Position numbers and translations under genes: made by a program. From Escherichia coli (GTDB lineage: Bacteria > Pseudomonadota > Gammaproteobacteria > Enterobacterales > Enterobacteriaceae): a DNA stretch of 64,000 bases. The notes under the pieces are model-generated. The model saw only the letters and a list, made by a program, of their open reading frames with translations. It was not told where the DNA came from and did no database searches. The stretch lies in the NCBI GenBank assembly GCA_032372955.1, contig GCA_032372955.1_4725.1; one strand, given 5' to 3'. Positions within the stretch are counted from its first letter, which is position 1. Every line of letters begins with the position of its first letter. Of this stretch, positions 627-60,014 are shown in pieces.

Positions 627-1478
627 ATGAGTCAGAAATTGTTAAACAAAAGTCCTAAAGTACTGGTCGCTGAACTTATTCAGGCAGCCAATCCTGACTT
701 CGACTTTAACTTCGATGCAATTGATATCACGGATGTTGCTGAAAACGGAAACCACGCGTATAAACGGAACACGCGCGCTAAGGTATCGCCTTCGGCAACA
801 GTAACACCAGCACAATACCGTGAAAGCAGCTACGTGTGGTACGATCGTATCCCTATCCAAGACTTCTTCTTGGGGATGGAACCGAAGCTTGCTATCGATG
901 CCGGGGTTAAAACGACGCACGATCTTATCCCTCTGATTCAATCAACGTACGGAATCGTTATCGATCAGGATAGCTGCGTCGATTCTCCGATCGTACGAGG
1001 CGATGAATATCCGTTCCCGCACACCGTAGAATTGAAAACCACCGGATTGGCTTGGACGGGAAGTGTTACGTTCTATCTCCTCGATAGTGCCCACGATATT
1101 GCGGGGATGATGAAGACTTCGGTGATGACCGGTCTCAATTTCCCGTACTACACCGCAAATCGTATCCAGGCATTGGTCTACAGTTACGCCATAGACTGTA
1201 CAGCGATCCGTTCCGATCTCGCCGGATTAAAAGTTGGCGGTAACTTAAGCGCACTGGTTAGCTTATTCAACAACGTTGCGCCAACCCCGTGGGTTTATAA
1301 CGGCCGTGAAGACGAAAACAACCTTTACGGAGCCACCGTGCTTGCAACCGGTAAAACAACAGAACTTATCGCACAGGGTTATCCTGTTAACCCGGCGTTC
1401 GCTAACGCTGTCATCGTTACGCTTAGCCAAGATTACTGCACGAACTACGGCGGTATCCTGTTGATGCAATATAACTGA
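627..1478 (+). CDS. hypothetical protein, LAWTGSV paralog family
   Basis: ORF track; motifs STYGI, LAWTGSV, QDYCTNYGG shared with neighbouring paralogs; start 10 nt after previous stop. Confidence 0.55.
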   Translation: MSQKLLNKSPKVLVAELIQAANPDFDFNFDAIDITDVAENGNHAYKRNTRAKVSPSATVTPAQYRESSYVWYDRIPIQDFFLGMEPKLAIDAGVKTTHDLIPLIQSTYGIVIDQDSCVDSPIVRGDEYPFPHTVELKTTGLAWTGSVTFYLLDSAHDIAGMMKTSVMTGLNFPYYTANRIQALVYSYAIDCTAIRSDLAGLKVGGNLSALVSLFNNVAPTPWVYNGREDENNLYGATVLATGKTTELIAQGYPVNPAFANAVIVTLSQDYCTNYGGILLMQYN

Positions 1479-1494
1479 TTAAATAGGAAAAGAC

Positions 1495-2379
1495 ATGGCT
1501 TCTACACAAATCCGTGCTACCGATCGTATCGTCCGTACGATTATCGGCGGTCAAGTACAAACTAACCTTACGCTCGGTCTTCCTCATGCATGGGAAGAAC
1601 ACAGCACCTTGAATGAAAAGCTTCAGATTCAATCAAAGGTTTACCCCGAGGGTAATCCTGCTGTACGTTACTTCTGTATCGGCAACCAGGGTCACGAATT
1701 CATCCGCAACGCTAACGGTATCCCTTCCTCGATGCCGATCGCTCACGAAGCAAGCGATCTATCACCGTGGAAAATCAAACCTTTCGTAATGCGTGAAGTT
1801 GGTAACGACTTGACCACGGACGAACGCGCTAAATTTGGGTTACGTCGTATTGAGACACTGGAAAGCGGTAAAAAGTATATCTGTTATTACGGTCGTCGCA
1901 TCGATTTCGATAACGTTGTCCGCTCCATGCGTTATACCAAATACGTCGACGGTGTCGCTCAGACCATCGAATGGCATCCAACCGACGCGAACCTCAACCC
2001 CGCCCGACCAGATATTCCAACAACCGGAATTCTGGTAGCGACCGGGGAGTACTACGACTACAGCTGTAAAGTCTCTTTGGTTTGGACGCCATGGGATATT
2101 AACGAATATCTCAATGTGGCTAAACTCACCGAAGGTGGTGAAGAGTACGCGGTTATTTCTGAAATTGGGATGGTCTCTGCGGGCGATAAAATCGTTCGTG
2201 CTGATGATGGTCAAGGTTCGGCCTTCGACATGAACGAAATCGTCGGTGCGCAGGTTACCGATCTGATTTCGACTTACCACAACCTTTATACCACCAACGA
2301 TACGCTGACACTGAAATACGACCTTGGTGCGTTGGAAGCTCGTAAGGCAGGCCCGACGGGCGCAGAAATCCTACCGTAA
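1495..2379 (+). CDS. hypothetical protein
   Basis: 294-aa ORF, tightly packed in + strand operon. Confidence 0.5.
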   Translation: MASTQIRATDRIVRTIIGGQVQTNLTLGLPHAWEEHSTLNEKLQIQSKVYPEGNPAVRYFCIGNQGHEFIRNANGIPSSMPIAHEASDLSPWKIKPFVMREVGNDLTTDERAKFGLRRIETLESGKKYICYYGRRIDFDNVVRSMRYTKYVDGVAQTIEWHPTDANLNPARPDIPTTGILVATGEYYDYSCKVSLVWTPWDINEYLNVAKLTEGGEEYAVISEIGMVSAGDKIVRADDGQGSAFDMNEIVGAQVTDLISTYHNLYTTNDTLTLKYDLGALEARKAGPTGAEILP

Positions 2380-4736: not shown

Positions 4737-6890
4737 ATGACAGATGAAATTAAACGCCTTCCGTATAACCCGCAGGGGAATTTGGATGGCGCATGGGTTC
4801 CAGAAGAACCCGTCACTGTCCGTCCTTCCACGGGGACCGGATTTAACTTTCTCGTTCCTAAATACGCGCCATATTTTCGTAATGGGTTAAAGATCTACAA
4901 CCCTGAAACAAACGCGTATCTGGAAGAAGGCGTTGACTTTTTATGCACTCACCCCTTCCGTGCCATGGCTGCGCTGACCGGCCTGGAATTATACGGTTCC
5001 ATCATGCTGTTGGACACCGCATTCAGTGGACAGTTGCAACTGAACTACTATTCACTGGGGGGTGAGTTTACACTTGATCAACAACAAATTCTTAACGTTT
5101 TAGCCAACAACCTCTACGACCCCCGCGTTACGTTCTGGGAAAAGGTTGCTGACGTTCCTTCCGTATTCCCGCCAATCAACCACCAACATAATGTCGAAAC
5201 CGACACAATGACGTGGGACGATGTGGTGGCGGCAATCGAATCATTGAAAGAACCGCTTGAAGAAGGGTTCAATAAAGCAATGACCGCATTGCTGCAGCAC
5301 GAGAATCGTCGCGATAACCCCCATGGCGTAACCAAGGCTCAAGTTGGATTGGGGAATGTTCAGAACTTCACAACGGCGACCGAGAGCGATCTGGAAACCA
5401 TCGGTGAAAATCTGTACATGACGTTGGCGATGACGCGTAAGATGATCGCTAACCTGAGTGGTGATAGTGCTGCTGCACACATCAGCAACTACAACAACCC
5501 ACACAAGGTAACTAAAGCCCAGGTGGGACTCGGAAACGTTGAGAACTACGGTACAGCCGATAGTAATGCAACCATTACCGGTACGGCCACAAATCTGTAC
5601 ACAACACCAGCGGGTGTACGTGCGGCAATCAAGGCGATCACGGACGGCTTAAGTACGCGCATCGATCATGTCAACGCTGCGTTAACAACCCATACCGGGG
5701 ATAATAACAACCCTCACGCTGTTACGAAAGCACAGGTAGGACTGGGGGACGTACAGAACTACGGTGTGGCGTCTAATGGGGAAGCCGGTGCAGGTGTTGC
5801 TAACAACAAATACATGACGCCCGCAACCACAGCAGCCGCCATCGCAGCGTTAATCACCCCAACCGTAACCGAACATATCGGTAACACCAACAACCCACAT
5901 GGGGTGACCAAAGCCCAAGTCGGTCTGGGAAGCGTGCAGAACTTTGGGGTTGCTACTACCCAAGAAGCTATCGACGGTCAGGCTAACAACAAGTACATGA
6001 CACCAATACTTGTTCGTTACGCGATCGAGCAAATGGCTGGTCAAGGGTTCAGTAGTCACATCGCAAATACCGAGAACCCGCACCAAGTATCTAAAGCACA
6101 GGTAGGGTTGGGGAGTGTTGAAAACTATCCTGTCGCTTCTGATGTGGAAGCACAAACAGGTGTAGCGACCAACCGCTATATGACACCGGCTGCGACAAAA
6201 GCGGCAATCATCGCTTTAGCGGGTGATGGTTTTGCGGCACACGTTGTCGATAAGAGCAACCCGCATGAAGTAACAAAATCTCAAGTTGGGTTAGGGAACG
6301 TACAGGACTTTGCTGTCGCCACCGACACGCAAGCTGCCGACAAGACTAACCAGACGACGTACATGACACCGTACTCGACTTACAAGTCAATTGCGGCGTT
6401 TGCGGCGTTAGCCGATCATACGCACACAGCCGAACAAGTCGGTGCGCTCCCCATCAATGGGGGTAAGTTAACCGGACCAATCGATCTTTCAGCAACGTCT
6501 ATCACGGGTACCGGACTCGGTATCGATGGTGCTAATGGTTCAATCAACGTCAATAAGTTGACCATCAACCAGCTTCTGGAAGCTTACGGTGGCATTGAAT
6601 CCAGTGATACGATTAAAATCCTGAACGACGATGAGACGCCCGCTAACTTCCTTGCCGATGGCGATCTCGAAGGGATCAAATGGGTTAACATCAACAGCCA
6701 AGAACCTGGAGAGAACCAAGACGGCGAGAAGATGCAGAAGATCGGTAAGCTGAGCGATTACCTTAAGAACGATTATTTAACCAGCTTGAAGACGAACACA
6801 GCGTTCCGTGATGTCTTCCAAGCACTGCTTAGGGAATTCCTTGCTAACTTCAACGCGGTTATCAAAGCAACCGACTTCGAGACGTTATAA
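4737..6890 (+). CDS. tail fibre protein with six tandem NPHxVTKAQVGLGNVxN[YF] repeat units
   Basis: 717-aa ORF; six copies of the repeat; N-terminal region and repeat shared with 10577..12625. Confidence 0.7.
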   Translation: MTDEIKRLPYNPQGNLDGAWVPEEPVTVRPSTGTGFNFLVPKYAPYFRNGLKIYNPETNAYLEEGVDFLCTHPFRAMAALTGLELYGSIMLLDTAFSGQLQLNYYSLGGEFTLDQQQILNVLANNLYDPRVTFWEKVADVPSVFPPINHQHNVETDTMTWDDVVAAIESLKEPLEEGFNKAMTALLQHENRRDNPHGVTKAQVGLGNVQNFTTATESDLETIGENLYMTLAMTRKMIANLSGDSAAAHISNYNNPHKVTKAQVGLGNVENYGTADSNATITGTATNLYTTPAGVRAAIKAITDGLSTRIDHVNAALTTHTGDNNNPHAVTKAQVGLGDVQNYGVASNGEAGAGVANNKYMTPATTAAAIAALITPTVTEHIGNTNNPHGVTKAQVGLGSVQNFGVATTQEAIDGQANNKYMTPILVRYAIEQMAGQGFSSHIANTENPHQVSKAQVGLGSVENYPVASDVEAQTGVATNRYMTPAATKAAIIALAGDGFAAHVVDKSNPHEVTKSQVGLGNVQDFAVATDTQAADKTNQTTYMTPYSTYKSIAAFAALADHTHTAEQVGALPINGGKLTGPIDLSATSITGTGLGIDGANGSINVNKLTINQLLEAYGGIESSDTIKILNDDETPANFLADGDLEGIKWVNINSQEPGENQDGEKMQKIGKLSDYLKNDYLTSLKTNTAFRDVFQALLREFLANFNAVIKATDFETL

Positions 6891-7959: not shown

Positions 7960-10563
7960 ATGGCAATGAAAAAGTTCAGCGAACTGGTGAATAGCGTTAC
8001 TACGCGTATCGCCAGTCGCAACAATCCAACAGGACTAAACGCGAGCGATCTCGGTGCCTACAGTACCGCTGAGTTCAACACTGAGATGGAAAAATACATC
8101 GATATTGGCGTAACCGATATCGAACAGGTTGGGGACCAAAGTTATTTTCCTCTGGCAATCGAAGGCTCCGCTGACGGTGCTATCTCCCTAAACGACAGAT
8201 ACCGTCGTTACGGCGTATGTCGTGAATCAGACGGTACTATCGTGTTATTGCGTTCAGCAACGAACAGCGTAAAGAAAGGGGTTTACTACGTTATCTGTAA
8301 AACAGATCAAAACGGGCAAATCACCGAAGTTATCCCAACCAGTCGTCGTTATGAACCCGCGACGCTCGACCGTATTCCTACGGCGATATACTGTCACCAG
8401 AACGGTATCATGTTAGGTCAAGCTGCTTTTGAAGACGGTAGCAGCCCTAAAATGTTTATCGCGTTGACAGACGGAACGTTTGACGCATCCAAACATGTCG
8501 CCATGTATCTTGATGGTAGTCTTGCCAACTTTGTTGATACATCACCGCATATCTGCTGTTGGGAAATTAACGGTAAAATCTACATCGCTATCGCTGGCAC
8601 TAACAGTTATAAACTCTACTTAAATGTTTATACCGTAACTAAATCTTCCATCGGTCCCAGCGGTGGCAGCGTAGCGGCTACGCAGCTTACGAATATTAGC
8701 GGTAGAACGATAGAAGGAACAGCGATAAGCAACAGTGCCGAGATGATTGTCTGCAACCGCATATCTGCGAACGATTTCCCTTCTGACGGGATCGGTCAAA
8801 TCGTCTGGCGCGCTCAGATTCGTCTGCATGCGGCAACCAAAGGCACGAAAGCACGTATTCTGATTGCTTCGTCGTGGTGGACAAACAACCGCAAAAATCA
8901 GCAAAAGAACGGGGTACATCAGTTCTATCTGGATTTTGAAACCACCAACAACAGTTATAGCATGAATCCAGGCGCTGGACAATCCACGTACGTGTCAACC
9001 GATAGCGGAATAGACTGGGTAGGACCTTCCAACACAACGGCGGGGACAAGCGGGTATAACGACGGTTTCTGGCAGTGGGGTTCGGGTAACAGTACGGGAA
9101 ATATTGAAATCGATGAACGTGGTCAAGTCGCTGTGATTCAAAACGACAACTTATCCGCTCCCTACGCACGATCGTACACTATCAGAGGTTTCTCTGGAAA
9201 CGTGTTTGACGAACTTGCCAAACTTGGTCCAACCAGTGGAATACAGCACGACTCAAACTGGAAAAGCGTTGACGATCGTGTCGTTGGTGCACTTGCGTCC
9301 CATGGTTACCTGGGTTTCTTTGCTAAAAACAAGGTTTTCGTTAACTCGCGTACGGCTGGTGGGCAAGGTAATTTCGAAGCCCGTTTGGTGACTTACGATT
9401 GGAACCTTAGCTATCGTTATCGAGGTGAGGGTATAGACGTTTACGGTTTTCCACCTTCCAACAACGTGGTGGTTAGCGCAGGTCAACTATCGCGACCTTT
9501 CCTAACCGTACATTTAAGCGATGACAATACGGTAGTTAGCGGGTCTTATTTAACTGATTCAAACTTATCCGGTAAAATCGGATACGACGCCACCAAACTC
9601 GCACCTTCCGGTGAAGACATCAGTATAACCGCAGCCAACCTGCAAGCGGGCGGACAGCTCGTGTGGAACGCGTATACTGGAACCAAGGTGTCTGGTGTTA
9701 GTCAGTGGCAGCATGCGTTAGCCGTACCTCCAGATGGTACAAACGCACCCTGTATTCTGTTTGTTGCTGGCTGTAATAACAGCACGCGCGTACATGGACG
9801 AATCGCTGCGGAAGTTACCGTATCCGCACGTAAAGGTGCTATTACGGTGACGGGCGTAACCAAACTGCTGGGTTATGTCGAGGAAGCCGATACAACAACT
9901 ATCGGTAGTCAGTATGCTGCCTGGGGTGCATTAGCTTACAAGAAGGTGAGTGATGGATGGCTTGTTGCGGGACATGTTCCGTACTCCCGTCAGTCTGCAG
10001 GGAACCAGAACACCTATCAGTTCCGAGCTGGACGACAAAACGATGGGAACTGGACAACCATCGCATTTGAAGGTATGTATGCTTACCTACAGACAAGCGG
10101 CTGGCGCTGGAACGTGCATCCGGTGTGGGGAATCGGTTATGTTGATACCGCAGTCTCTACGGTGATGGGTAATGGCGGTCAAGTCTTTAGCGCTGTCGGT
10201 AATTCCGTTGCGGAATATAAAGCTCTCGCTGTTAAAAACCGTTACATGGTTTCTACGGTCGTTGCTGCTTCCGGTTACGATATCTACATCAACGAAGACA
10301 TCACTTGCTTGTTTGCCGGTAAAGTCATGACCCTACCTAAAGGCCATTATAACCTAAAAGACTATAATAGCTCACCAGGTAATAAAACATGGTACGTTTC
10401 CGTTGTTCCTAATGGCGACCAGTTAGAACTGGAGTTAACCATCTACAAGCAAGAGGATGATAAAGGACAGCGCGTTAATATCGGAACGATTACGACCAGC
10501 GATACCCAGATCTCTGTCATTAATCTCAATAAGACAACCAAATTAGGTACAGTCACGTTATAA
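7960..10563 (+). CDS. large putative tail fibre / receptor-binding protein
   Basis: 867-aa ORF inside the fibre cluster; GAGGTG RBS; Ser/Thr/Gly/Asn-rich composition typical of fibre proteins. Confidence 0.45.
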   Translation: MAMKKFSELVNSVTTRIASRNNPTGLNASDLGAYSTAEFNTEMEKYIDIGVTDIEQVGDQSYFPLAIEGSADGAISLNDRYRRYGVCRESDGTIVLLRSATNSVKKGVYYVICKTDQNGQITEVIPTSRRYEPATLDRIPTAIYCHQNGIMLGQAAFEDGSSPKMFIALTDGTFDASKHVAMYLDGSLANFVDTSPHICCWEINGKIYIAIAGTNSYKLYLNVYTVTKSSIGPSGGSVAATQLTNISGRTIEGTAISNSAEMIVCNRISANDFPSDGIGQIVWRAQIRLHAATKGTKARILIASSWWTNNRKNQQKNGVHQFYLDFETTNNSYSMNPGAGQSTYVSTDSGIDWVGPSNTTAGTSGYNDGFWQWGSGNSTGNIEIDERGQVAVIQNDNLSAPYARSYTIRGFSGNVFDELAKLGPTSGIQHDSNWKSVDDRVVGALASHGYLGFFAKNKVFVNSRTAGGQGNFEARLVTYDWNLSYRYRGEGIDVYGFPPSNNVVVSAGQLSRPFLTVHLSDDNTVVSGSYLTDSNLSGKIGYDATKLAPSGEDISITAANLQAGGQLVWNAYTGTKVSGVSQWQHALAVPPDGTNAPCILFVAGCNNSTRVHGRIAAEVTVSARKGAITVTGVTKLLGYVEEADTTTIGSQYAAWGALAYKKVSDGWLVAGHVPYSRQSAGNQNTYQFRAGRQNDGNWTTIAFEGMYAYLQTSGWRWNVHPVWGIGYVDTAVSTVMGNGGQVFSAVGNSVAEYKALAVKNRYMVSTVVAASGYDIYINEDITCLFAGKVMTLPKGHYNLKDYNSSPGNKTWYVSVVPNGDQLELELTIYKQEDDKGQRVNIGTITTSDTQISVINLNKTTKLGTVTL

Positions 10564-52808: not shown

Positions 52809-53053
52809 GTATACCTCCAGTTCGATACGTTCCCATGTTACGTTGGAACGTGATGCACGAAGTTTACCTTCGGCATTGATAATGTTGAAGCGTAACTTCA
52901 CACATCGCCCGCTTGATTTTATCAAGCAGGTACGTAACCTAATAACTTCCTCGCCTCAAGCAAGGAAGCGATGGGTGACGCCATCACCCATTACGTCTCT
53001 CGTGTGTTCAGATGATACCGCCGCAGCCGGTGGTGGTAAAGAGGAGTGTCTCC

Positions 53054-54520
53054 ATGGCTAAAGTCAGAGAGCCGTTTAATATTAGCATTTTGCGCCTCGA
53101 TAAACAGCAGTTACGTTTTCTCCCCAAGATCACGAGCATGAGCATCCGTGACCCAAGCACCGGTAATTTCCACGATGATGGTTTCTATTCTTACACCATC
53201 TTTGGTAGTGCGGGTAGTGAAGATCGAGACCGTCGATTTGCGGTGATCGAATGCAAGGTTGAAATCCTACACCCCGTCATTTACGACCGCCTCATTCGAC
53301 TAAAACACCTCTATGGCGATATCATGTCGGGGAAGGCGTACGCTCGGTGGGATCCTGAACAACGCGACTTCGTTGCGTCTGATGCGTTAACAGGACAAAC
53401 AGGATACGGGTTCTTTGCACAACACGTCGCGGATATCAAGTTCGTTTCAACGGGTTCAGCTCAACGAGAGCTACGAATTAAAGTTGTCGAAGAGAACATG
53501 TTCAAAGCGATGACCCGTCACTTACTGGTATTGCCTGCGGGCTTACGCGAAATAGAAGTAAAAGAAGGCGGGTATGAAAGCGAGCAAGAAATCACGGAGT
53601 TGTATCGTCGTTTCCTTGCAATTTCTAACACCGTCCCTGATGGATTAAAAGATTATTCTGATCCCGTTTACGACGGTCAACGTTGGAGCTTACAGAGAAC
53701 ATTTAACGATATCTACGCTTTGTTGTTGGATATGTTCCAAGGTAAGAAAGGGATCTTCCAAGGTAAGTTCGGTTCACGTCGCGTTTGGAACTCAACCCGT
53801 AACGTTATTTCGGCAATTAACCCCACAACAGAGGTACTAGGGTCGCCCAACCAGCCTTCCTGTACCGCAGTTCAGTTAGGGTTATACCAGATGAGCAAAG
53901 CCGCCCTACCCGTGACGCAACATGCGTTACGTACGGGGATTTTGCAGGAAATATTTGTCCGTGATGTTACAGAAGTTGAACTTATCGATACCGAAACGAT
54001 GGAACGTGAACGTGTCACGCTTGATCCAGACACCATCGATGACTTTACAACATGGGACGGAATAGAACGTTTATTGAACACCTTAAGCGATCCTGGTGTA
54101 CGTAACGAACCCATCATGGTTAATGGGCGTTATCTTTGTCTCGTCTATGTGAACAATGATTCGTTTCGGTTATTCCGTGGTATGAGTGAATTACCCCCGG
54201 AGATGCTGAATAAGCCTGGTGCGGATGTTCACCCCATCACGTACACCGAGCTTATCTATATTGCCGGATATAAGTACTGGAATAACCTGGCTGCGATGGT
54301 AACACGTTATCCGGTATCGGGTATGCAATCCGTTATCCCGTTAACCTGTTACGCGCGTACAACCGTTGCAGCAAAACCGAAAACCGAACTGGATAGTAAC
54401 TGGGAACCAATAACGGATGAACGATTTATCGCATGGGAATACCCCGACTGGTTACCTAATGCCTCGTTCGTAGAAACTACTATTGTTCCTGCGCCATACC
54501 TCGCCGGTTTAGGCGGTGAT
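53054..54520 (+). CDS. RNA polymerase beta-prime-like subunit, N-terminal module, exon 1 (predicted 3' boundary)
   Basis: AAGAGGAG RBS; beta-prime-like segments ELYRRFL and GKKGIFQGKFGSRRVWNSTRNVI; boundary placed after U54520 by homology and frame. Confidence 0.6.
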
Positions 54521-55002
54521 AAGTCCTTGAAAAATAAAGACTTTTTTCAATGGAAGTTGTCCGGTATTCCCGAAAGGGAGTGCTTGAAAAACCTACGAAT
54601 TGCTGGGAACCCCTAAAGCTCAACGACCCATGAGGTGCCGAAAGGCAGAAACAACAGTTGAGATGCACTACCTCCCACGGAGGCTTAGGCTGAAAGAAAA
54701 GCCGCGTAAGCGGTGCTAAGGTGCGCGATAATGGGCAATCAGCAGCCTGGTTGTTGCGTAGTAATACGGCATTCTTGAAAACAAGAATGTGAAACAACGC
54801 AGGTTCAACGACTAAGGGATTTACCACCCTGTAGAGGACAAGCGTCTTCGAAGTGTAGGTTACCGTAACAGGTGTTGCTGAAGTATTCTTCAGCGAAGCT
54901 GACGGTTTGATATAGTCTCCTCTTGCATGAAAGTGCAAGCAGCCTGTGATGTACGTATCCATGCAGGCGGTCTCAGCGTAGCGACCTGAGGCGAAGACAA
55001 GG
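54521..55002 (+). ncRNA. group I intron (ORF-less), intron 1, boundaries predicted
   Basis: Q-like AATCAGCAGC 54737-54746, R GTTCAACGACTAAGGG 54793-54808, S GATATAGTCT 54909-54918, P8-like hairpin CTTGCA/TGCAAG; flanked by two halves of one conserved protein motif. Confidence 0.7.
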
Positions 55003-55182
55003 TTCGACGGTGATACGGTCTCGGTTAACGTTCTTTATTCCATGGAAGCCATTGACGAAATTACCAACTCGCACAAGAAGCGAGCTTTCTGGGTAAGTGG
55101 TAAAAATAAATTCAACATCGATATTGGTTACGATACGGTTGCGTTTCTATTACGCAACTTAACGGGACCTCGTGGAGCCTAA
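55003..55182 (+). CDS. RNA polymerase beta-prime-like subunit, exon 2 (begins FDGDTVSVNV...)
   Basis: frame encodes FDGDTVSVNVLYSMEAIDEI...IGYDTVAFLLRNLT, matching bacterial [20 protein letters not shown]...SQDVVLGLYYMT; stop at 55180. Confidence 0.6.
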   Translation, partial: FDGDTVSVNVLYSMEAIDEITNSHKKRAFWVSGKNKFNIDIGYDTVAFLLRNLTGPRGA

Positions 55183-55185
55183 CCC

Positions 55186-58100
55186 ATGGCAAAACTTAAA
55201 TACCTTGATTACTACCGACAGTTTGGTGTCAGACGCTACCAAGAGCTACTATCACCAAGATTACGTTTAGTGCAGCTACTGCAGCTGCCGCGTTATGCTG
55301 TCTATCATTACACCGCAACGGATCCTTCATTGATAGGTCCTCCAGAAAACGAATACATGCTGAGCAAAGAAAGTGCTCAACTATGGATTTCGTTTGCTGA
55401 TGATCTCGCAACCAAACAGGGTGCACCCCGACGTGATCAACGATTCCAACTCCCACGAGCGAAATTGGATTATCGTGCATCACATCGTCGTTTTCGTTTG
55501 GTTACCGATCTAAGCGCGGTGGAGAAAAACATCAACGCTCAGATCGTTGCTAACTACGCGCATCTTAACCACATGTACATTTATCGTCCAACGCTCACCC
55601 GTTGGTATGATGAATGGTTCAACGTACGTAAAACAATTTGGTCGAAAGCCAACGAAATCGCACAGCAAAGCGATCGTCAACACTTTTTGTTGTTCCGTAT
55701 ACCGTCAAAATTGCCGAAGATTTCGTTGATGCGTACCACGCAACAGGCACCGACCCGTAACAACCTCATGAATTTCGCCACGCCGGAGGAGCTGTCGTTC
55801 TTTGACTTCTTCCGCTGGTTGGGCGTCGATCGTGAGAACAGCACGATGGCTTCGTTAGACAGGGCCATGCTGGATAAGCTTAACGTCGTATTTACAGACG
55901 GTGTGTACTTCTTTACGCTGAATCTCGGCCTGCTGGAGGAATGGCGTACCGGACTTGTGAAGGAAGGGGAAGAACTCGATAAAACGACGCTTGAAACCTT
56001 CCAACGACGTTGGATGATGGCGGTAACACGTCTGTGGTCGCAGAGTGCGAATGAAGAAGAACAGAAACAAGAAGAGGAACAGGTTCTTCGTCAAGAGCGA
56101 GATATTCTTGCAGCCAGCCCGGATGCGGAGTACGATGATCGTGACGTCGTGCTTCCTAACGGTGAGGATCTGGCTACCGTTCTCGATCCCGATGAGTTAG
56201 AAGCGGAGTTGGTCGGTGGGTCGGATGAAGACGATGATGCTGATGCATGGAACGCCATCGTAGAACGCTCGTTCGAAGATGTCCGTGAAGTACCTGGGGT
56301 AGAAGTACAACCGGATTTCCAACCTGATGAAGATCAGGACATTACCGACGATCTCTTCGAAGTCGTTACCGACGATACCGAAGAAGAAAAGGTTGATGTC
56401 TTTGACGCGGCAACGTTACCAAAAACGCATGGCGAATATATTCAGTCGCTATCGGATGCGGTGTTGGTACGCGCGAGTGATCTGGCGGATGCGGGTCAGT
56501 TAAGCGGTGTCCAGTATAAAGCAGCGATGCGTAACGCCGACGCCATTCACGAAATCGAAGCACCCGACGGTTCTGGATTAACACTTGCTGAGTATGTCGA
56601 AGTTAAACCAAAAGCCGCAAAATTAGCTCCCGCAAAGGTTATGCCGGAAGCGGATGTTATCGTCGACAAGAGCTTATGTAAATCGACGCTCGCGGTGTGG
56701 GATAAACATTACGTCGAACACGTAATGCAAAAGGACATCGCAGCTGCCGTTGTTGCGGTACAGCAGGCGGGTTACCCTGTTACGGGATATAAAGTTGAAG
56801 ATGTTGTTGACGTGATGGGGGACTATCAAGTCATCACGATTAAACTGGCCCCTGTAGGCGGTGTCCCGACCACGTTCCCGGTGATGTTGCCGAAGGTTCG
56901 TAAGGACGGCATTTATGTCGTTAACGGTATCAAGTACCGGATGCGTAAACAACGCGTCGATAAACCTATTAGAAAGGTATCGTCATCTGAAGTCGCATTG
57001 AGTACCGCCTACGGTAAGGTGTTTGTTAAACGTTCAGAGCGCGTCGTTAATAACGCCGGTCGTTGGTTAACACGCCAACTTACGGCGATGTATTACGATA
57101 AGTCCTCGCCCTTAACAACGTTAAAACGCGGTAACGTCTTTGATCCGGCTGTCAAAGTTCCGTATTACTTCGCTGTGCTTGCACGCAACTATACCCAAAT
57201 CCAATTTGCTGATTGGGATATACGTCTCGATATAAAAACATTGCCGGAGTTCATCGGGGAAGATCGGTTCAACGAACAGTTAGCCGAAGGACTCCTGACG
57301 TTCGCGCGTAACACGTTGGGTGAATTCTTAGCAATCGATAAACGCAATCAGCTCTATATCTGTCAGTCGGGACAAACACCAACACCTGTAGGGACGTTCC
57401 CTGATTTCTTCGGCATTAATGCGGCTAAGATGCCGATCGAAGCCGCCGATCTTGAATTCATGGGTGTACGTATTCCGGTCGGTGTTGTTCTAAGTTATCT
57501 GGGTGGGCTTACCCCGTTATTAGAACATCTTAAAGCGAACTATCGTACGGTACCTCGCGGCTCTCGTATGGGGTTAGCACCCGATGAATTCGCAGTGAGC
57601 TTTGACGACGAAAGTCTGATCTTCAGTAAAGACGATCGCATGACGACGTTGTTGCTGGGTGGGTTTAACGAATACCGTAACTACATTGGTTACGCTCGCG
57701 GTGCTTTCGACAATCGAGATATCTATTTTAACGTTGTTGATGGTGCTGGACTTAAGGTTCGCCATTTGCGCGAACTTGAACTCATGGAGCGTCTTTTCAT
57801 CGATCCGGTAAGCCGTACGTTGTTGCAGAACATGGGAGAACCTACCGATTTCGCCATGTTGTTACTGCGTGCTGTTGAACTGCTTCTGGATGATTGGGCA
57901 CCTAACACGAACGATGTGAACTACCAACGTTTTAAAACGTACGATAAGTTCGCTGAATTGGTGTATAAGGACCTGGTTGGCGCTATTCGTCAGAATGAGA
58001 ACAGCAGTCAAGGGAACCGCCAGAAAATCTCAATCAGTCCGGTAAGCGTCTGGAACCAAATTCTCGACGATAGCGCTTCCATCGTGATCGATGAAACCAA

Positions 58101-58335
58101 CCCGATGCTGGATATCAAGCAGGGTGAAGAAGCAACGATGACCGGTATCGGGGGTCGTTCAAAGACATCGCTTCGACGCGCACGTGATCGCGAATACGAC
58201 AAGTCGGACATTGGTGTTGTATCCGAAGGTACGAAGGATAGTGGGGACGTAGGTATTTCTGCTTACCTCGCACCTAACGCAAACATTGTGTCTGTATACG
58301 GTGAAACGAAACCTTACGACGAGAAAACGGATGGT
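55186..58335 (+). CDS. RNA polymerase beta-like subunit, N-terminal module, exon 1 (3' boundary approximate)
   Basis: ATG 3 nt after the beta-prime stop; C-terminal part DETNPM...TGIGGRS...RRARDRE...SEGTKDSGDVGISAYLAPNANIVSVYGETKPYDEKTDG parallels E. coli beta DQNNPL...LGPGGLTRERAGFEVRDVH...[36 protein letters not shown]. Confidence 0.55.
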
Positions 58336-58874
58336 AGCTCGTCAATAATGAGTACATCAGCACTTGCAGTACCTGCTGCTGATAGAGATGATTAACGCTT
58401 TTAATAGCAGGGTCCGTCTATGTGGCGACATGTAGATGAGATTCACTGAATTGCGAAGACATCCGTCGCTGTTATCGACCAAAACGGATTCTGAAAAGAA
58501 AGACGGTACGGTATAAAAACAGATAATAGCTTAAGGACAATCCGCAGCCAAGTACCTAAGGATCGCTGTGAAGCGTTCTAAGGTAAAGGTTCAACGACTA
58601 AGGGATTCATCCCCCTGTACCCCTCGAGTGAGGCATTCTCCTTGGATAAGAGAATGGTGCTGGATGCGCTGGGAAGAAGTGAACTCTCGTTGAGGTGCTG
58701 AAGAAGCACCGTTTGAAACGAGATGTGATATAGTCTGCTCTTGCGTGAGAGCGCAAGCGGGAGGTGGTGCGCCTATCATCGCCTCCGGGATAAGACTAAC
58801 GACCTTATCTGAACAATCTAATCTCAGTCTTATTTCGGTAACGGTATGTTAATACTGAATAAGAACTAAATTCG
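58336..58874 (+). ncRNA. group I intron (ORF-less), intron 2, boundaries approximate
   Basis: P-like AATTGCGAAG 58449-58458, Q AATCCGCAGC 58539-58548, R GTTCAACGACTAAGGG 58589-58604, S GATATAGTCT 58727-58736; homologous to intron 1 with a compensatory change in the P8-like stem. Confidence 0.7.
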
Positions 58875-60014
58875 CCCAAGAGATTGGTATTTATAGGTAT
58901 CCAACACAACCGCATGATTGCTGCTGAAGGTTACGATGTACAGCCGTGGCGTACGGGTGGTGAGACTGTTATCGCGCATCGTGTTGGTAAGCTCTTCGCA
59001 GCAGCTGCCCAAGGCGATGGTGTTGTGAAGAAGGTCACTAAAACTGCGCTGACGATACAGTACGACGACCCAGAGTTAGGGGAAGAGGTTTTCCAGCTCG
59101 GTACGATAATCGGGAAAGGACCAGGTAAGTATTATCCTCACGATCTCATTACCGATTATAAAGTCGGGGATCGCGTTAAGGATCAGGATGTGGTGGTTTT
59201 CCACCGCCTTTATTTTAAACGCGATTGGTGGAACCCAGGTCAGGTTGTTTGGCGCGCAGGTGTTCTGTCTCTTGTCGGTATTCTGGATATTCCAGAGACC
59301 CACGAGGACAGCTCGTATATCTTCGACAATCTTGCTGATCGTCTCGTAACACCATCGATTAAGAGTCGTACGCTTATCGTTGACGCTCATCTCAACATTC
59401 GTGGTCTCGTGAAAATCGGTGATCATGTTGAACCGCGAACGATTCTTGCAACACTGGAAGAACCGATTGCAACCGATCTGAGTGATGAGAGTCAGGAAGC
59501 CGTTGAAGCATTACGTCGTATGAGTCAGTATAACCCACGTGCTGATGTTCATGGTGAAGTTGTACAGATCGATGTACTGTACCGCGCTCAGATTGAAGAC
59601 ATGAGTGAAACCATGGCAGCGCTCGTCGGTGAGGCAGATAAAGCACGAGCTAAACGCGTCAAGGAACTGAAACTCAACGAAGCAACAACGGGGCGTATCA
59701 ATAACAGTAACGTGAGAATAGACGGTAATCCGTTAGGCGAGAACCAGATCGCCATCCGTATTTTCATGCGTTACGACCTTGGTGCGGGGATGGGTGATAA
59801 AGGTACCTTCGCAGCTCAAGCGAAATCCGTTGTCTCTTCCGTGGGTCATGGTGTGAACAAAACCGAAGACGGGCACACCCTTGATGCTATCTTCAGTGGC
59901 ACCAGTATCGCTAACCGTATCATCGGTTCACCGGAAGTGGTTGGGACTGTGAATCTTGGTCTCCTCTACGCAACGGAACGAGCTGTTGATATTTACTTTA
60001 ACGACGCTAAATAA
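58875..60014 (+). CDS. RNA polymerase beta-like subunit, exon 2 (5' boundary approximate)
   Basis: open frame extends upstream of the track start (TTG at 58884) to 58863; IGIQHNRMIAAEGYDV parallels E. coli beta IHYLSAIEEGNYV directly after the TDG motif. Confidence 0.55.
   Translation, partial: PKRLVFIGIQHNRMIAAEGYDVQPWRTGGETVIAHRVGKLFAAAAQGDGVVKKVTKTALTIQYDDPELGEEVFQLGTIIGKGPGKYYPHDLITDYKVGDRVKDQDVVVFHRLYFKRDWWNPGQVVWRAGVLSLVGILDIPETHEDSSYIFDNLADRLVTPSIKSRTLIVDAHLNIRGLVKIGDHVEPRTILATLEEPIATDLSDESQEAVEALRRMSQYNPRADVHGEVVQIDVLYRAQIEDMSETMAALVGEADKARAKRVKELKLNEATTGRINNSNVRIDGNPLGENQIAIRIFMRYDLGAGMGDKGTFAAQAKSVVSSVGHGVNKTEDGHTLDAIFSGTSIANRIIGSPEVVGTVNLGLLYATERAVDIYFNDAK

Follow-up and report, generated by a model that had tools for sequence, protein, structure and literature searches.

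An ORF-less group I intron in the catalytic aspartate motif of a virion RNA polymerase beta-prime gene of a Goslar-like jumbo phage

Introduction

The classical group I introns of bacteriophages, namely those of the T4 genes td, nrdB and sunY and the DNA polymerase intron of SPO1 and SP82 with its endonuclease I-HmuI, occupy conserved codons of essential genes, with or without an HNH or GIY-YIG endonuclease, and ORF-less variants exist. These introns reside in other host genes and other phage families than the intron described here.

For jumbo phages, the literature describes RNA polymerase genes as often disrupted by introns. In Bacillus phage AR9, a group I intron splits the catalytic aspartate motif encoded by the gene for the N-terminal part of the non-virion beta-prime; the annotation of g270 joins two pieces around g271, and the contiguous protein is present in PDB entry 7S00. 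In PhiPA3, a weapon used in competition between phages has been identified in the gp210 intron of the virion RNA polymerase (vRNAP) beta gene (Birkholz et al. 2024, Science, PMC11620839). The record of Escherichia phage vB_EcoM_Goslar (NC_048170) lists an ncRNA named 'Intron_gpI' (HOV27_gs002) and gp206 between gp205 and gp207; our literature search found no paper specifically on the Goslar intron or its insertion site, D/FDGD (here and below, the slash marks the position of an intron).

Here, we describe a 482-nt segment, 54521..55002 on the plus strand of a 64,000-nt stretch of DNA from an Escherichia coli assembly (hereafter, the window). We consider it highly probable, at roughly 90%, that this segment is a group I intron capable of self-splicing, that it interrupts the gene for the N-terminal part of vRNAP beta-prime and that it represents the ORF-less form of a mobile intron. 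A preliminary description of the locus had overrated its novelty, given the Intron_gpI of the Goslar record, the AR9 intron in the same motif and the published introns of jumbo-phage RNA polymerase genes. Introns of this kind are already known from giant-phage RNA polymerase genes, and the locus involves no new mechanism.

Results

A Goslar-like phage and its interrupted polymerase gene

Positions 53000-56000 of the window are 96% identical to Goslar, a 237-kb nucleus-forming jumbo phage, and the gene order is that of Goslar gp204-gp207. A very large virion protein with a lysozyme domain is encoded on the minus strand and precedes the plus-strand polymerase genes; in the Goslar order the first plus-strand gene is annotated 'RNA polymerase beta subunit', and the large vRNAP beta gene comes next. 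The window phage is a Goslar-like E. coli jumbo phage, or chimallivirus. Goslar-like genomes also occur as contigs of 236-248 kb in many isolate assemblies of E. coli (including O157) and Salmonella, and no Goslar-like phage was matched among complete RefSeq E. coli genomes and PLSDB plasmids.

The interrupted gene falls into PHROG 2986 (E 2.6e-179), and tblastn finds homologues in 296 phage records, including the 'vRNAP beta-prime subunit 1' of phage RAY and PhiPA3 gp212, which is annotated as similar to phiKZ gp180. The best solved relatives of the protein are the non-virion RNAP beta-prime of AR9 (E 4e-4) and plastid and cyanobacterial beta-prime/gamma chains. The spliced product also aligned with what we take to be a segment of E. 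coli beta-prime (pairwise E 1e-5), and its second exon aligns with chloroplast beta-prime over a 17-residue stretch. A Pfam search of the exons and the spliced protein returned no RNAP family at threshold. Both the sequence relationship to multisubunit RNAP beta-prime and the three-aspartate (N)ADFDGD metal-binding loop are present, and on these grounds of homology the gene is assigned to the phiKZ gp180 family as the N-terminal beta-prime subunit of the virion RNA polymerase.

Exon 1 spans 53054..54520 (plus strand) and ends in ...LAGLGGD, the last codon being GAU; intron-less homologues begin with MAKVREPF, and translation could alternatively start at an in-frame ATG at 53012. The open frame 53012..54616 ends in ...APYLAGLGGD-KSLKNKDFFQWKLSGIPERECLKNLRIAGNP and contains no DFDGD. 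Its read-through tail at 54521..54616 (plus strand), 31 codons and a stop within the intron, yields the truncated 'hypothetical protein' of 520 or 534 aa found in databases (for example WP_257259168.1, 520 aa). Exon 2 lies in a different frame at 55003..55182 on the plus strand and comprises 59 codons. It begins FDGDTVSV... (FDGDTVSVNVLYSMEAIDE), has no start codon of its own at the 5' end, and runs to ...LLRNLTGPRGA with its stop at 55180-55182.

Splice sites and reading frame

Intron-less alleles place the junction. Two of them (P0001 and P0003; 548 aa, 99-100% amino acid identity) are contiguous across it and read ...LAGLGGDFDGDTVSV..., and the 548-aa intron-less proteins on phage-sized contigs from E. 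coli and Salmonella assemblies read ...APYLAGLGGDFDGDTVSVNVLY... without interruption. At the DNA level, the intron-less contig L002 has GGTGGGGAC/TTTGACGGTGAT, whereas the window has GGCGGTGAT, 482 nt of insertion and TTCGACGGTGAT. Sliding the junction by one base in either direction alters an encoded residue, so that 54521..55002 is the sole solution, and comparison with these sequences confirms splice sites after U54520 and after G55002. The intron sits between the first aspartate codon and the phenylalanine codon of the motif, and the joined GGD/FDGD aligns with the NADFDGD of solved beta-prime chains, such as 8QMA and AR9 (LSGDYDGDVLNI). The preliminary description had read the two frames as parts of one beta-prime-like gene, the first lacking DFDGD and the second continuing in another frame to the stop at 55180, with splicing at these two sites restoring the motif in frame; the contiguous 548-aa homologues, the DNA of the intron-less alleles, the PHROG and AR9 matches, the annotated homologues and the cellular beta-prime alignments bear this out throughout.

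Fold of the intron

Against Rfam family RF00028 (Intron_gpI), positions 54535..54939 match the full model (1-253) with 64.1 bits and E 6e-14, above the gathering score of 50 bits. The MFE z-score of the intron is -4.74, with 0 of 100 shuffles folding equally well, and an unconstrained fold gives P1, P2, P3, P4, P5, P6, P7.1, P7.2, the inner part of P8, P9, P9.1 and P9.2. The preliminary description had proposed a group I intron from Q-, R- and S-like strings. The covariance match and the canonical helices agree with that proposal, and the three strings correspond to P4', J6/7-P7 and J8/7-P7' of the Rfam alignment.

The 5' splice site lies in the P1 hairpin (54518..54561, plus strand), which is present in both centroid and MFE folds. 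Its pairs are G54518-C54561, A54519-U54560, the splice-site wobble U54520·G54559, A54521-U54558 and A54522-U54557, with a stem extension at 54524-54534/54543-54554. P1 has just three exon base pairs, formed with an internal guide, GUCC, at 54559-54562, and the U at -1 is the wobble partner expected of a group I intron in both folds. The same combination of exon GAU/ and a GUCC guide directly 5' of P2 occurs in Goslar, in PhiPA3, in three homologous loci described below (L018, L019 and L021) and in a second intron of the window. A P1 of six base pairs with G54556 as wobble partner, four of the pairs being G·U, was abandoned in the light of the folds and of the introns of Goslar, L019, L021 and L018, and a guide inside the Goslar endonuclease ORF (position 8917) was dropped in favour of the conserved GUCC.

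Downstream of P1, all on the plus strand, the P2 hairpin (GGUAUUCCC GAAA GGGAGUGCU; 54563..54584) is seen in the fold and shows compensatory changes in a six-intron alignment. P3 (54590-54597/54854-54861), placed by the Rfam alignment, the MFE helices and RNAalifold, encloses P4 (54601-54606/54739-54744), P5 (54610-54612/54733-54735), a P5 extension of about 115 nt with GNRA loops (54616-54730) and P6 (54745-54804). The P7 pseudoknot helix, GACUA 54810-54814 with UAGUC 54913-54917, was assigned by eye from the R and S elements on the Rfam consensus; L019 has GACCA/UGGUC at this place, a compensatory change. Within P7 lie P7.1 (54815-54830) and P7.2 (54834-54849), both of which covary, P8 (54862-54906) and the 3' strand of P3. 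The guanosine-binding site would lie in P7, as judged from the pairing of that helix. P9, with a GAAA loop, follows at 54922-54939, supported by the fold and by covariation, and P9.1 (54942-54968) and P9.2 (54970-54992) appear in the fold. Read directly, the last intron base is the omega-G, G55002; a terminal G is shared with Goslar, L019, L021, PhiPA3, AR9 and the second intron of the window. No convincing P10 was found when one was looked for.

From a plain MAFFT alignment of six members of the intron family, RNAalifold derived 39 consensus pairs in P2, P3, P4, P5, P6, P7.1 and P7.2, and 26 of the 39 show compensatory changes. For P9, a small covariance model of the S element and P9 was applied to 19 distinct related introns: 95% of cells are paired, 7 of 7 pairs have changed on both sides and 0 of 500 shuffles score as high, in an alignment that was fitted to the model and leans towards structure. 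With a core above threshold, a terminal G, covariation and restoration of the reading frame, the segment 54521..55002 is a group I intron. Its subtype is phage IA-like, with P7.1/P7.2 and P9.1/P9.2 extensions.

Comparison with Goslar, AR9 and PhiPA3

The Goslar intron interrupts the same gene at the same point (GGCGGTGAT/.../TTCGACGG), and its ribozyme core is 95% identical to that of the window. Their P1 loops differ in size, with 35 nt in the window and about 1.57 kb in Goslar; the Goslar loop carries gp206, a 490-aa HNH_3/NUMOD1 homing endonuclease resembling I-HmuI, which the window intron lacks. P8 of Goslar contains an additional hairpin of 28 nt without counterpart in the window. In the Goslar record (L001 6055..9748), gp205 is annotated as 502 aa, including a 13-codon read-through into the intron, and both the 59-codon exon 2 (L001 9566..9745) and the join are unannotated.

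AR9 shares with the window a U at -1 and a terminal G. Its intron lies at DYDG/D, 9 nt further downstream than D/FDGD, and carries an endonuclease of the HNH family (g271), whereas the window intron is ORF-less. The AR9 polymerase is non-virion and the phage belongs to a different family; its intron core (L023, KU878088, 4039..4932) scores 31.6 bits, below the Rfam gathering score.

The PhiPA3 gp210 intron shares the GUCC guide, the R and S elements and about 60-80% core identity, by crude pairwise alignments, with the window intron. It belongs to the same virion polymerase gene cluster but interrupts beta, whereas the window intron interrupts the neighbouring beta-prime; PhiPA3 gp212, the beta-prime N subunit, is uninterrupted. 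The PhiPA3 intron encodes a characterised nicking endonuclease, in contrast to both introns of the window, which are ORF-less.

Spread of the insertion site

In about 30 of the best 120 homologue clusters the protein stops at the first aspartate codon or shortly behind it (...G[AG]D followed by 0-15 read-through residues), and in two more it stops directly after DFDGD. Four truncated homologue loci were fetched. At the same codon boundary, Rfam detects group I introns in L019 (83.9 bits; ORF-less) and, with an HNH gene, in L021 and L018 (83.3 and 53.7 bits), and in L020 the contig ends at the boundary; L018, L019 and L021 represent distant lineages. The site is uninterrupted in 285 of the 296 phage records, including PhiPA3, 201phi2-1 and phiKZ-like phages.

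Among viral contigs that share the R element of the intron, L010 contains three group I introns within 1.1 kb (4770..5824), L015 two adjoining group I introns (1509..2359) and L011 a group II intron (1179..1710).

A second intron in the vRNAP beta gene

The gene downstream is interrupted as well. Exon 1 of vRNAP beta (phiKZ gp178/Goslar gp207 family) spans 55186..58392 and ends in ...AVPAADRDD, a second ORF-less group I intron, also of 482 nt, occupies 58393..58874 (Rfam 52.8 bits, E 1.5e-10), and exon 2 (PKRLVFIGIQHNRM...) runs from 58875 to 60014, all on the plus strand. The spliced vRNAP beta would have 1448 aa, the length of Goslar gp207. Following two conserved aspartates, the position after ...ADRDD is that of the PhiPA3 gp210 intron. 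No further introns and no tRNAs were found in the window.

L003 has intron 2, and Goslar, L002 and L004 lack it; given the distribution of the two introns, all four combinations of their presence and absence exist in near-identical phages. In L016 (2979..4600), a Goslar-like contig of 237.5 kb, intron 2 encodes an HNH endonuclease of 403 aa, which shares 36% identity with PhiPA3 gp210 and 27% with Goslar gp206. The junction codon of intron 2 is Pro (CCC), as opposed to Gly (GGA) in intron-less alleles, and flanking codons are heavily recoded (e.g. CGT to AGA).

The guide GUCC stands immediately 5' of P2 at 54559-54562 and 58412-58415 of the window, at about 9093 in L001, 4994 in L019 and 6017 in L021, and on the minus strand of L022, and the introns at both polymerase sites all follow the Asp codon GAU. 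On sequence grounds, introns 1 and 2 are placed in the same family, which seems to recognise GAU/ at an active-site position of beta-prime and at a different one of beta. Crude pairwise identities show no extra closeness between the window's two introns of the kind that intragenomic exchange would leave.

The ORF-less state and mobile-intron ancestry

As the preliminary description had noted, the intron contains no homing endonuclease gene: there is no plus-strand ORF longer than 39 aa within 54521..55002, in contrast to the HNH endonucleases of its relatives. In antisense, a 160-aa frame is open across the whole intron (54480..54962, minus strand), a length equalled in only 0.2% of shuffles. 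It matches nothing in Pfam or PHROG and is broken in Goslar by the 28-nt P8 insertion, and it is probably a non-coding product of chance. Gene callers annotate the same antisense frame elsewhere (L025 8427..8909).

Other features are those of a mobile intron. Presence/absence polymorphism is found together with altered exon flanks: the intron-plus alleles of the beta-prime gene have in common four synonymous differences from the intron-less ones within 7 nt of the site (GGC GGT GAT/TTC versus GGT GGG GAC TTT), and the junction flanks have 7-8 mismatches in about 16 nt against a background of about 4%. This pattern is as expected at a homing site, where flanks are co-converted and a U is needed at -1. 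In a survey covering 40 of 235 and 40 of 665 members of Goslar-like protein clusters, intron-less, ORF-less and endonuclease-bearing alleles were found in Goslar-like phages, with at least five different intron 5' ends and coexisting proteins of 548, 534, 520, 510, 502 and 491 aa. We class the window intron with the ORF-less variants of mobile introns, not with autonomous mobile introns.

How this form arose is hinted at by the last ~20 nt of the Goslar insertion, which resemble the P1 loop of the window and are collinear with it; this 20-nt similarity weakly suggests an origin by loss of the endonuclease. An IMG/VR search with GGCGGTGATTTCGACGGTGA for an intron-less allele with intron-type flanks, as precise intron loss would leave, gave L024 as its sole match, which is unrelated. 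The intron-less target sequence reads ...CTTGGTGGGGAC/TTTGACGGTGATACG..., and because the window intron splits the presumed target of the endonuclease, the window allele is predicted to be immune to a Goslar-type endonuclease while being unable to home alone.

Splicing and alternative readings

Sequence evidence leads us to infer that the intron is spliced; the literature search returned no report of splicing in the window phage or in Goslar. By standard group I chemistry, the pre-mRNA would fold so that exon G-A-U pairs with the guide GUC(C), placing U54520 opposite G54559. Exogenous guanosine would then attack after U54520, and the freed 3'-OH of U54520 would attack after omega-G55002. The ligated mRNA would read GGC GGU GAU/UUC GAC GGU GAU (...LGGDFDGD...), with the junction GGCGGUGAU/UUCGACGGUGAU in an RNA 482 nt shorter than the unspliced form. 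The three-aspartate Mg-binding loop would thereby be restored in a 548-aa protein with the junction peptide ...YLAGLGGDFDGDTVSV.... Since exon 2 has no 5' start codon, unspliced RNA would yield only the 520-aa product, which is short of two of the three aspartates. From what is generally known of multisubunit RNA polymerases, that product would be inactive.

A different junction can be drawn by extending exon 1 to ...NKDF (54544) and joining it to DGD, and the resulting NKDFDGD looks closer to NADFDGD than does GGDFDGD. In-frame read-through indeed gives ...GGDKSLKNKDFF, and Rfam places P1 on GACUUUU...GGAAGUU. The intron-less alleles, however, have LGGDFDGD without a KSLKNK insertion, the Goslar intron departs straight after GAU (QGKANKMPVFWQI), and no combination of a U at -1 with a terminal G yields that product in frame. 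We regard this junction, which would appear in cDNA as AAAGACUUU/GACGGUGAU, as having practically no chance of being correct, and it was excluded on the evidence of the intron-less alleles and Goslar.

With the D/FDGD junction in place, the question becomes whether the intron is still active and whether it acts by itself. A P1 with just three exon pairs and the absence of an endonuclease, a late stage of the homing cycle, might be taken to mean that the intron is a decayed relic that no longer splices, the beta-prime gene a pseudogene, and the phage either defective or reliant on another polymerase. This reading is very unlikely: all core elements lie above the curated Rfam threshold, both exons keep an intact frame with a protein 99-100% identical to intron-less relatives, several isolates have the same allele on phage contigs of full length (about 238-241 kb), and the subunit is kept in 296 phage records. 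Only slightly less improbable is a group I intron that does not splice autonomously in vivo and requires a phage or host cofactor with maturase-like or chaperone activity. All of the sequence evidence would fit such an intron equally well, and the short exon-guide pairing, the weak P10 and the large peripheral P5 extension could be seen in this light, but no sequence feature demands a cofactor, the related PhiPA3 intron has been described as a putative self-splicing group I intron, and the AR9 gene is annotated as a two-piece join. The preferred reading is still that of a self-splicing intron.

Discussion

The interruption of this gene leads gene callers astray. Their output has a 'hypothetical protein' cut short at 520 aa, lacks exon 2 with its 59 codons and even includes a gene on the antisense strand of the ribozyme. 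The model chimallivirus Goslar is misannotated in the same way, as are about a quarter of the homologue clusters that were examined.

It is tempting to speculate that the two active-site positions, D/FDGD in beta-prime and DD/ in beta, form a two-locus polymorphism of introns and endonucleases, in which one GAU/-recognising family with a GUC guide has colonised both positions and ORF-less introns have been selected as immunity alleles. We offer this as a tentative proposal, with the odds rather against it. If it were true, ORF-less introns would shield polymerase genes from HNH nicking by co-infecting relatives, in interference competition of the PhiPA3/phiKZ type, and would not simply be decaying selfish DNA.

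In the E. coli model system of Goslar-like phages, two active-site positions of the virion polymerase naturally have intron-less, ORF-less and endonuclease-bearing alleles. This allele set provides material for the study of intron-mediated competition, of which PhiPA3 versus phiKZ is the one case demonstrated to date.
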